Sequence record: PP047754
DNA: 64,000 nucleotides
Reading direction: 5' to 3' (one strand)
Source: Escherichia phage KEP4
Positions 60,997 to 61,123 of the stretch are shown here, piece after piece (the stretch's first letter is position 1; each line of letters opens with the position of its first letter). The translations under genes and the position numbers were made by a program. The notes under the pieces are model-generated. The model had not been told where the DNA came from. It ran no database searches and saw only the letters and a list, made by a program, of their open reading frames with translations.

Positions 60997-61123
60997 GTCG
61001 GGCGGGGGATTCAAACCCCAATCTTTAGTTTGTGTTTCTTCAAAGCTATCATATGTTCACTTTGAATACTAGACTCCCCTGGACATCAAAACAGAATCTC
61101 TATTCCATCCTGCAAGACCCGAC
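60997..61123 (-). ncRNA. tRNA-like element, 127 nt: canonical acceptor and T-arm-like module around an extra-long body
   Basis: Acceptor GTCGGGT/GCCCGAC (7 bp incl. one GU), T-arm-like GGGG-TTTGAAT-CCCC; 7 nt from tRNA-Asn. Confidence 0.3.

Follow-up and report, generated by a model that had tools for sequence, protein, structure and literature searches.

A conserved 127-nt tRNA-like element in the tRNA operon of Kuttervirus phages as a candidate non-canonical small RNA

A stretch of 64,000 nt from Escherichia phage KEP4 (sequence record PP047754; the whole stretch is called the window below) carries in its tRNA cluster a 127-nt tRNA-like element, E1 (61123..60997, minus strand), which was identified by its sequence and by a motif scan. 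E1 joins an acceptor stem and a T-arm-like hairpin to a body that is not that of a tRNA; it is present or absent as a unit among related phages and is under purifying selection. On balance, we read it as a functional, non-canonical tRNA-like small RNA that would be released by the tRNA-processing machinery and act through its non-tRNA body; we infer its transcription, processing, stability and function from comparison of sequences. By its sequence the window is that of a Kuttervirus (Ackermannviridae) phage, the region being 100% identical to Salmonella phages kage and BPS6 and 99.9% identical to SFP10. The minus strand carries every RNA gene discussed here.

Anatomy of E1

Positions within E1 were counted on the minus strand, position p being window coordinate 61124 − p. 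The 5′ acceptor strand GUCGGGU (E1 1–7; 61117..61123) pairs with the 3′ acceptor strand GCCCGAC (E1 121–127; 60997..61003) in a terminal stem of 7 pairs (6 Watson–Crick pairs and U7·G121), which is an acceptor stem by the standard of canonical tRNA. Directly 5′ of the 3′ acceptor strand stands the T-arm-like hairpin U-GGGG-UUUGAAU-CCCC-C (E1 104–120; 61004..61020) with 4 G–C pairs and a 7-nt T-like loop. The upstream neighbour, tRNA-Asn(GUU) (61206..61131; called by ARAGORN and by Rfam with 75.8 bits), ends with its encoded CCA at 61131, and the leader GGAUUAU (61124..61130; GGATTAT in the DNA) between this CCA and E1 is therefore exactly 7 nt long. The pairing of GTCGGGT with GCCCGAC across 127 nt, the T-arm-like GGGG-TTTGAAT-CCCC abutting the 3′ acceptor strand and the 7-nt distance to tRNA-Asn had all been noted in the original prediction, made from the sequence alone, and were borne out, the stem being one of 7 bp on the minus strand.

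In the structure that the haplotypes support, the acceptor stem (1–7/121–127) and the T-arm (105–108/116–119) enclose two further elements: hairpin 1 (CAGGAU / 9-nt loop / AUYCUG; E1 12–32, paired 12–17/27–32; 61092..61112) and a long arm (E1 50–92; 61032..61074), which consists of an outer helix (50–53/89–92), an internal loop and a 7-bp helix (58–64/79–85) and is tipped by the 14-nt apical loop UGAACAUAUGAUAG. E1 has no D-arm and no anticodon arm, and at 127 nt it does not form the 70–95-nt cloverleaf of a canonical tRNA. The 3′ acceptor strand is followed by G-ACA in Kuttervirus and by G-GCA in Limestonevirus; CCA is not encoded.

Distribution of E1

E1 is a discrete, cassette-like unit. 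It was found by BLAST in 101 phage records, about 338 Ackermannviridae records sharing the surrounding stretch. Carriers are Kuttervirus phages of the SFP10, CBA120, GG32 and Det7 types and all 19 Limestonevirus (Dickeya phage) matches; among the matches listed, none of 60 records annotates E1 as RNA. In the E1-less comparators Shigella phage Ag3 (Agtrevirus), Klebsiella phage KZag1 (Taipeivirus) and Kuttervirus allotria, the CCA of tRNA-Asn is fused directly to GACAAUGGGUGUG, the sequence that follows E1 in the window. The boundaries of presence and absence fall exactly at the stem ends, and no target-site duplication of a mobile element was found at the E1 junctions. The trailer of E1, G-ACA-AACAAU (60987..60996, minus strand), resembles the G-CCA-GACAAU that follows tRNA-Asn in E1-less phages (in trailers read off the junction alignments, the 13-nt stretch GACGACAAACAAT agrees with GTCGCCAGACAAT at 10 of 13 positions), and gain or loss of E1 therefore looks like recombination between unit boundaries.

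More distant homologues were sought in IMG/VR with two exact-pattern scans, which returned only known isolates, in metagenomes with an anchored scan, which returned one chance match (a terminator followed by a genuine tRNA-Cys), by synteny with the neighbouring 172-aa protein, which returned mostly unrelated prophages, and in E. coli genomes by BLAST, which gave no match. As these wider searches were fruitless, the diversity of E1 stayed at about seven haplotypes.

Constraint and substitution pattern

E1 is under purifying selection. Its identity is 89.8% to Dickeya phage RC-2014 (Limestonevirus) and 95.3% to Phi_10 (Det7 type). Corresponding values are 73% (Limestonevirus) and 76% (other Kuttervirus) for the non-coding unit 120 nt downstream (60875..60817), and 75% and 95% for the tRNA at the upstream position. 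The 172-aa gene, which lies 1.3 kb away, has at its four-fold degenerate sites 37.5% identity to LIMEstone1 and 73–74% to the Kuttervirus phages Marshall and S118. By comparison with these sites, E1 changes several times more slowly than neutral positions, and since identity is uneven within one contiguous stretch, recent transfer of the whole region does not explain its conservation. A homology check of the 127-nt segment had been proposed originally, with lack of conservation as the outcome that would speak against the element; E1 proved conserved, both in the number of records and between genera. The 34 nt of E1 56–89 (61068..61035) are invariant in every haplotype, across subfamilies.

Nearly all substitutions in the E1 stems keep pairing. 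Pair 105–119 is G–C in general and A–U in Limestonevirus, where both sides have changed; pair 51–91 is U–A, U·G or C–G depending on the haplotype; pair 52–90 is mismatched except in Limestonevirus, where it is A–U; pair 15–29 is G·U in the SFP10 type and G–C in the CBA120, Det7-type and Limestonevirus haplotypes; and pair 7–121 is U·G in most haplotypes and U–A in S118, Se-H and EP75. Stem cells were paired in 96.4% of cases, as against 35–54% when the partners were slid by 1–3 columns.

Context and folding

The window was scanned on both strands for a 7-bp acceptor stem (at most one G–U pair) with an adjacent T-arm (loop TTNRANN) and a total length of 60–150 nt. All five matches lay in the minus strand of the cluster: tRNA-Asn, E1, tRNA-Ser, a tRNA with an enlarged anticodon loop (60370..60285) and a second long tRNA-like RNA, E2 (60274..60125). 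Random Markov sequences gave 0.88 matches per 64 kb over both strands, so that a single match anywhere is unremarkable; on the right strand and within about 1.5 kb of the tRNAs, the motif was expected about 0.01 times. Chance pairing of the acceptor strands, also named originally as a possible refutation, is effectively excluded by this context, the unit boundaries and the conservation.

The minimum free energy (MFE) of E1 is −34.7 kcal/mol (z = −1.66), and thermodynamic stability alone is weak evidence for the element. In the Dickeya-phage (Limestonevirus) haplotype, the MFE fold is exactly the proposed structure; in Det7-type haplotypes, it keeps the T-arm hairpin with the register slightly shifted and is more stable than the exact proposed fold by 0.6 kcal/mol; and in the window haplotype, the fold with the T-arm lies 0.6 kcal/mol above the MFE. 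Structure prediction, which had been suggested as a check, gives the proposed structure as the MFE fold in Limestonevirus and another MFE fold in the window haplotype.

Tests for known RNA classes and coding capacity

Rfam was searched with the whole window at the gathering score and with 59900–62500 and 62300–64000 at E ≤ 10; E1 was matched by no family in either search, and tRNA, tRNA-Sec and tmRNA are among those without a match at E ≤ 10. ARAGORN was negative on the E1 strand in default mode, with intron search, with lowered thresholds, in mitochondrial mode and in tmRNA mode; a lone call at E1 in mitochondrial mode lay on the opposite strand and was disregarded. No hairpin with a 5-bp stem and a 7-nt loop was found in E1. 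Every contiguous block of 25–74 nt was then removed from E1 (2,325 variants): at the default ARAGORN threshold none was called as a tRNA, and the 26 calls at a lowered threshold were mutually inconsistent, with many different anticodons. A parent for the E1 acceptor stem and T-arm was sought among the tRNAs of 32 Ackermannviridae and comparison loci and was not found, the best candidate having mismatches at 13 of 31 positions. With all of these searches negative, the original suggestion of a tRNA interrupted by an insertion is not supported, and E1 was rejected as a tRNA with a single insertion.

Three further candidates were rejected. As a tmRNA, E1 is negative with ARAGORN -m and matches no Rfam tmRNA family, its pair 3–70 is C–G and not G·U, and it has no tag reading frame. 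As a tRNA pseudogene with an internal deletion, it has no alignable tRNA in the Ackermannviridae loci and is longer than a tRNA, not shorter; the 43-nt stub at 60513..60471, compared with the tRNA-Ile of allotria, served as positive control. As a coding sequence, it is overlapped by open reading frames (ORFs) that are short, differ in extent from phage to phage and either lack an ATG start or start within tRNA-Asn, and no ORF spans the invariant core in both subfamilies.

Other long tRNA-like RNAs

E2 is a 150-nt tRNA-like RNA at the end of the operon (60125..60274, minus strand), identified by fold and covariation. The acceptor stem has 7 bp, the T-arm (UCGGG-UUCGAUU-CCCGA) is canonical, and there are two long arms and a UCCCA tail; the fold has −47.9 kcal/mol (z = −3.17). 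When Kuttervirus, Agtrevirus and Taipeivirus are compared, compensatory changes are seen in 10 of 45 pairs, and the loops and the UCCCA tail are conserved; by this strong covariation and conservation, E2 is a well-supported structured RNA. It was found in 238 phage records; no RNA is annotated under any of the 40 matches listed, and in Ag3 a 'hypothetical protein' is called across it.

E2 resembles E1 in its 7-bp acceptor stem, in the abutting T-arm, in the long arms that replace the D- and anticodon arms and in its place in the same operon on the same strand; it differs in its canonical T-loop, its UCCCA tail, its strong covariation and a well-paired outer stem in the long arm. Their distributions differ as well: E1 is present in Limestonevirus, where E2 is undetectable, and E2 is present in Kuttervirus, Agtrevirus and Taipeivirus. 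The E1 covariance model aligned collinearly with E2 (E about 0.03–0.18), and the E2 model found E1 with E = 0.067, which is no better than its scores for tRNAs. Within the window, the string GUGAA-N7-UAGCUUU occurs only in E1 and E2, the two sequences from which the pattern was derived, and Smith–Waterman alignment of the two was not significant (p = 0.11). From these sequence comparisons, it is possible that E1 and E2 are distant paralogues. A third candidate tRNA-like RNA, E3 (63014..62893, minus strand), is 122 nt long, is followed by UCCA and has a canonical T-loop and a four-way fold like that of E2. That RNAs of this type occur in the operon at all, as E2 and E3 indicate, speaks for E1 as well.

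Interpretation of E1

If E1 is a functional small RNA, it would be co-transcribed with tRNA-Asn, the downstream tRNA-like units, tRNA-Ser and E2. Its acceptor-stem/T-arm minihelix would be the feature recognized by RNase P and the tRNA 3′-end enzymes, and we propose that the host thereby cuts E1 out as it cuts out the neighbouring tRNAs; as CCA is not encoded, any CCA end would be added by a host enzyme. The product, presumably a stable RNA, cannot decode because it has no anticodon arm. Its working part would be the body that replaces the D- and anticodon arms, namely the 6-bp hairpin and the long arm with its never-varying 34-nt apical part. The most likely role, and this is a guess, is that of a tRNA mimic which binds or titrates a tRNA-binding factor of host or phage. 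The original prediction had also offered a stable small RNA processed together with the tRNAs; this fits the strand, the punctuation of the operon, the constraint, the pair-keeping changes and the precedent of phage T4 discussed below, while stability and processing themselves are what we infer. More speculatively, E1, E2 and E3 might all be phage tRNA mimics, processed by the host and acting as decoys for, or inhibitors of, host factors directed at tRNA, such as tRNA-modifying enzymes or the nucleases with which anti-phage defence systems attack the anticodon or the acceptor end; we consider this broader proposal unlikely as it stands. If it were true, the patchy cassette distribution in Ackermannviridae would reflect an arms race with host strains.

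Several observations weigh against a functional small RNA. The T-arm of E1 has a U·C mismatch at the position of pair 49–65, and its loop UUUGAAU has U in place of tRNA C56 (a tRNA-Cys that ARAGORN calls on a metagenomic phage contig has this loop too). In BPS3, pair 105–119 is U·C and the T-stem pair is broken. Only two pairs have changed on both sides, which 64 of 500 shuffles equal and which is not significant, and with about seven haplotypes covariation is statistically weak. RNAalifold prefers an alternative helix, 45–49/115–119, over the T-arm, and by this model the Limestonevirus change C119U could equally compensate G45A in that helix. Two thirds of the relatives (about 70%) cleanly lack E1. 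All three canonical tRNAs of the operon encode CCA and E1 does not. The invariant core, which reads TTCAAAG-N14-CTTTGAA and has CATATG at its centre, is a partial palindrome and could in principle be a DNA site. Expression or transcriptome data for Ackermannviridae phages were not found in the searchable literature, and a 2024 review of the family makes no mention of tRNAs or non-coding RNAs.

The main rival is that E1 is a functionless, decaying relic of a tRNA-type gene that was rearranged or duplicated and then degraded, its ends not yet having mutated; we hold this to be possible, though doubtful. The operon is littered with abnormal tRNA-like pieces, one of which is a tRNA-Ile relic (60471..60513, minus strand), a 43-nt minihelix GCGGGAG...CUCCCGC followed by U-CCA. 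It equals allotria tRNA-Ile(GAU) minus about 41 nt (part of the anticodon arm, the variable region and the T-arm) with both acceptor strands intact, and this provable wreck shows that relics with intact acceptor stems occur in this stretch. The absence of E1 from most relatives, the degeneration of CCA to ACA or GCA and the T-stem-breaking change in BPS3 point the same way and, if E2 is a paralogue, E1 has lost the 3′ strand of an arm that is well paired in E2. A relic would, however, not be expected to change several-fold more slowly than four-fold degenerate sites and more slowly than the adjacent non-coding unit, to keep a 34-nt core invariant between subfamilies or to restrict its stem changes almost entirely to those that preserve pairing. 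No parent tRNA was found and no single deletion restores one, and Limestonevirus retains E1 although tRNA-Ser, the insert-bearing tRNA and E2 are undetectable there.

An improbable alternative is that E1 acts only in cis, as processing punctuation that recruits RNase P and 3′-end enzymes while the excised piece is inert, or that the palindromic core is a protein-binding site in DNA. The location between tRNA-Asn and the downstream units, the tRNA-like pattern of leader and trailer and the partial palindrome would suit such a role, as would the lack of enrichment of targets complementary to the apical loop (11 found in the window, 7.45 expected). Punctuation alone, however, would not demand an invariant 34-nt core, and the changes in hairpin 1 and the T-arm, which keep the pairs, suggest that selection acts on the RNA. 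E1-less relatives join tRNA-Asn directly to the downstream unit, and no punctuation is therefore needed there.

That E1 is a real tRNA gene, whose insertion or intron is removed to give a decoding tRNA, is very unlikely. Its acceptor stem and T-arm are tRNA-like, and a neighbour (60370..60285) is a tRNA with an anticodon loop enlarged by 13–15 nt; against this, the Rfam search, ARAGORN intron mode and the deletion scan at the default threshold were all negative, there is no hairpin with a 5-bp stem and a 7-nt loop, and the mere 50 or so extra bases hold no group I or II intron signature. Chance occurrence of the acceptor pairing and the T-arm-like hairpin in intergenic DNA, which the rate of 0.88 motif matches per random 64 kb and the fold z-score might suggest, is effectively refuted by the right strand 7 nt after a tRNA in the cluster that holds all five motif matches, by its presence or absence as a whole cassette, whose edges coincide exactly with the ends of the stem, and by conservation far above neutral.

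Layout of the RNA operon

Long ORFs are absent between about 60030 and 64000. ARAGORN at default settings and Rfam call three tRNAs, namely tRNA-Met (61695..61620), tRNA-Asn and tRNA-Ser (60462..60374), all on the minus strand, and permissive settings add the tRNA at 60370..60285. The latter (60285..60370, minus strand) has perfect acceptor, D- and T-arms and an anticodon-loop region of 22 nt instead of 9; it scores 48.7 bits with Rfam, is called tRNA-Pro(agg) with a 15-nt 'intron' by ARAGORN, encodes no CCA and is annotated as pseudo 'tRNA-OTHER' in SFP10. An encoded CCA ends the canonical tRNAs and several other units of the operon, and the leaders in front of the listed tRNA and tRNA-like units are A/T-rich and have AAT, AATT, TTAT or TAAT, or something close to these such as AAAA or TTTC, as their last letters. 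An intrinsic-terminator-like hairpin (60037..60059, minus strand; 9-bp stem with 6 G–C pairs, followed by the T-run TCTTTTTGTC) is the sole such site on the minus strand in 59800..62600, with none between E1 and this hairpin, and it probably ends the operon. A scan for sigma-70 promoters was uninformative (2 found, 2.9 expected).

The unit directly after E1 (60882–60987, minus strand; about 106 nt) starts with GGGUGUG and ends with ACGCCC-A-CCA; it has an acceptor-like closing stem and an encoded CCA and no T-arm. Further downstream on the minus strand, part of 60809–60882 matches, at about 82% identity, what directly follows tRNA-Lys in T5-like phages (Demerecviridae), and 47 nt at 60752–60798 match an intergenic piece of N4-like Gamaleyavirus phages at about 89%; by these matches, small non-tRNA modules seem to be common to unrelated families of enterobacterial phages. 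A 72-nt unit at 60738–60809 (minus strand) has a perfect 14-bp closing stem (UCUACCACCGCGUG/CACGUGGUGGUAGA) and is 89–96% conserved between subfamilies; a tRNA-Tyr gene is inserted directly after it in Ag3 and Phi_10, and KZag1 also has tRNA-Tyr, but in a rearranged region.

At the position of tRNA-Asn(GUU), Limestonevirus has a tRNA with anticodon CAU, annotated as tRNA-Met (Dickeya phage RC-2014, locus 1422–1498). It is 75% identical to tRNA-Asn of the window, from which it differs in acceptor stem, anticodon arm and 5′ strand of the T-stem, and by sequence an orthologous tRNA gene appears to have switched its anticodon. At 61234–61368 (minus strand), kage carries the annotation of a 135-nt 'tRNA-OTHER' and BPS3 that of a 44-aa ORF; as a relaxed scan showed only an A/T-rich pseudo T-arm there, the tRNA call looks spurious. 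Just upstream of tRNA-Met, a 108-nt segment (61696–61803, minus strand) ends in ...GACCCCG-CCA and holds a perfect 13-bp palindromic hairpin (GGAUUCGAUGCGC/GCGCAUCGAAUCC); in Ag3, tRNA-Ser(UGA) lies at its 5′ edge. At 62000–62111 and 62476–62609 lie two long inverted repeats (CAACUUUGAUGGCUCUGG... and AAUCGAAGUUCUCUGGG...), whose arms measure about 20 bp and are near-perfect; they surfaced as spurious matches to microRNA precursors, and one arm of the repeat at 62476–62609 coincides with a 'repeat_region' annotated in kage. Two shorter tRNA-like units with canonical T-loops lie upstream of E3 on the minus strand, one of 65 nt followed by CCCA (63021–63085), in which by reading of the sequence a GAAA-capped hairpin replaces the anticodon arm, and one of 64 nt in which one arm is missing (63431–63494). 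Neither ARAGORN nor Rfam calls these two or E3 (62893–63014).

Significance

Ackermannviridae is a family widely used as therapeutic and biocontrol phages. Two or more long tRNA-like RNAs that are conserved and unannotated occur in it, E1 in 101 genomes and E2 in 238; at the least, annotations of the family miss RNA genes and in places run spurious small 'hypothetical proteins' across them. Natural presence/absence variants are ready material for genetics, as phages with and without E1 can be compared on host panels. Phage tRNAs have recently been reported to evade retron, PARIS and other tRNA-targeting defence systems, and phage tRNA clusters are increasingly viewed as counter-defence loci. 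Non-tRNA small RNAs of tRNA clusters are known from T4 and have never been explained.

Comparison with known systems

With canonical tRNA (RF00005) and tRNA-Sec (RF01852), E1 shares the 7-bp acceptor stem, the place and loop length of the T-arm that adjoins it, the tRNA operon and the A/T-rich leader; unlike them, it has no D-arm and no anticodon arm, is 127 nt long, has U at T-loop position 56 and encodes no CCA. With tmRNA and YrlA, it shares the joining of a tRNA-mimicking module to a non-tRNA body. The termini of YrlA form a Ro-binding stem, not an acceptor stem adjoining a T-arm; no Rfam family matched E1 at E ≤ 10, the presence of a YrlA model in that release being unchecked.

The closest parallel is in phage T4, where rnaC (species 1, 139 nt) and rnaD (species 2, 119 nt) adjoin tRNA-Arg at the end of the tRNA cluster and are stable RNAs of unknown function (PMC3014915, PMC9697503, PMC12685909). 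At the gathering score, Rfam matched neither rnaC nor rnaD in the T4 locus. The E1 covariance model gave no match there at E ≤ 10, and homology of E1 to rnaC or rnaD was not found by sequence or profile; the E2 model scored 22.5 bits on the 3′ domain of rnaC and up to 19.3 bits on T4 tRNAs. The T4 RNAs lie at the end of their cluster and E1 in the middle of its own, the T-loop is UUCGAAU in rnaC and UUUGAAU in E1, and the T4 RNAs are experimentally stable, whereas the stability of E1 is predicted. In both systems, however, non-tRNA genes of about 120–140 nt lie on the tRNA strand within the tRNA cluster of a lytic phage, a few nucleotides from a tRNA. Next to the 3′ end of rnaC stands a canonical T-arm, CCGGG-UUCGAAU-CCCGG, and after it comes a terminal strand whose pairing partner lies upstream; together they form a tRNA-like 3′ module of T-arm and terminal stem as in E1. 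E1 would thus be analogous, and not demonstrably homologous, to T4 RNA C and D and, if E1, E2 and E3 were indeed decoys, they would offer a comparative handle on the roughly 50-year-old question of what these T4 RNAs do.

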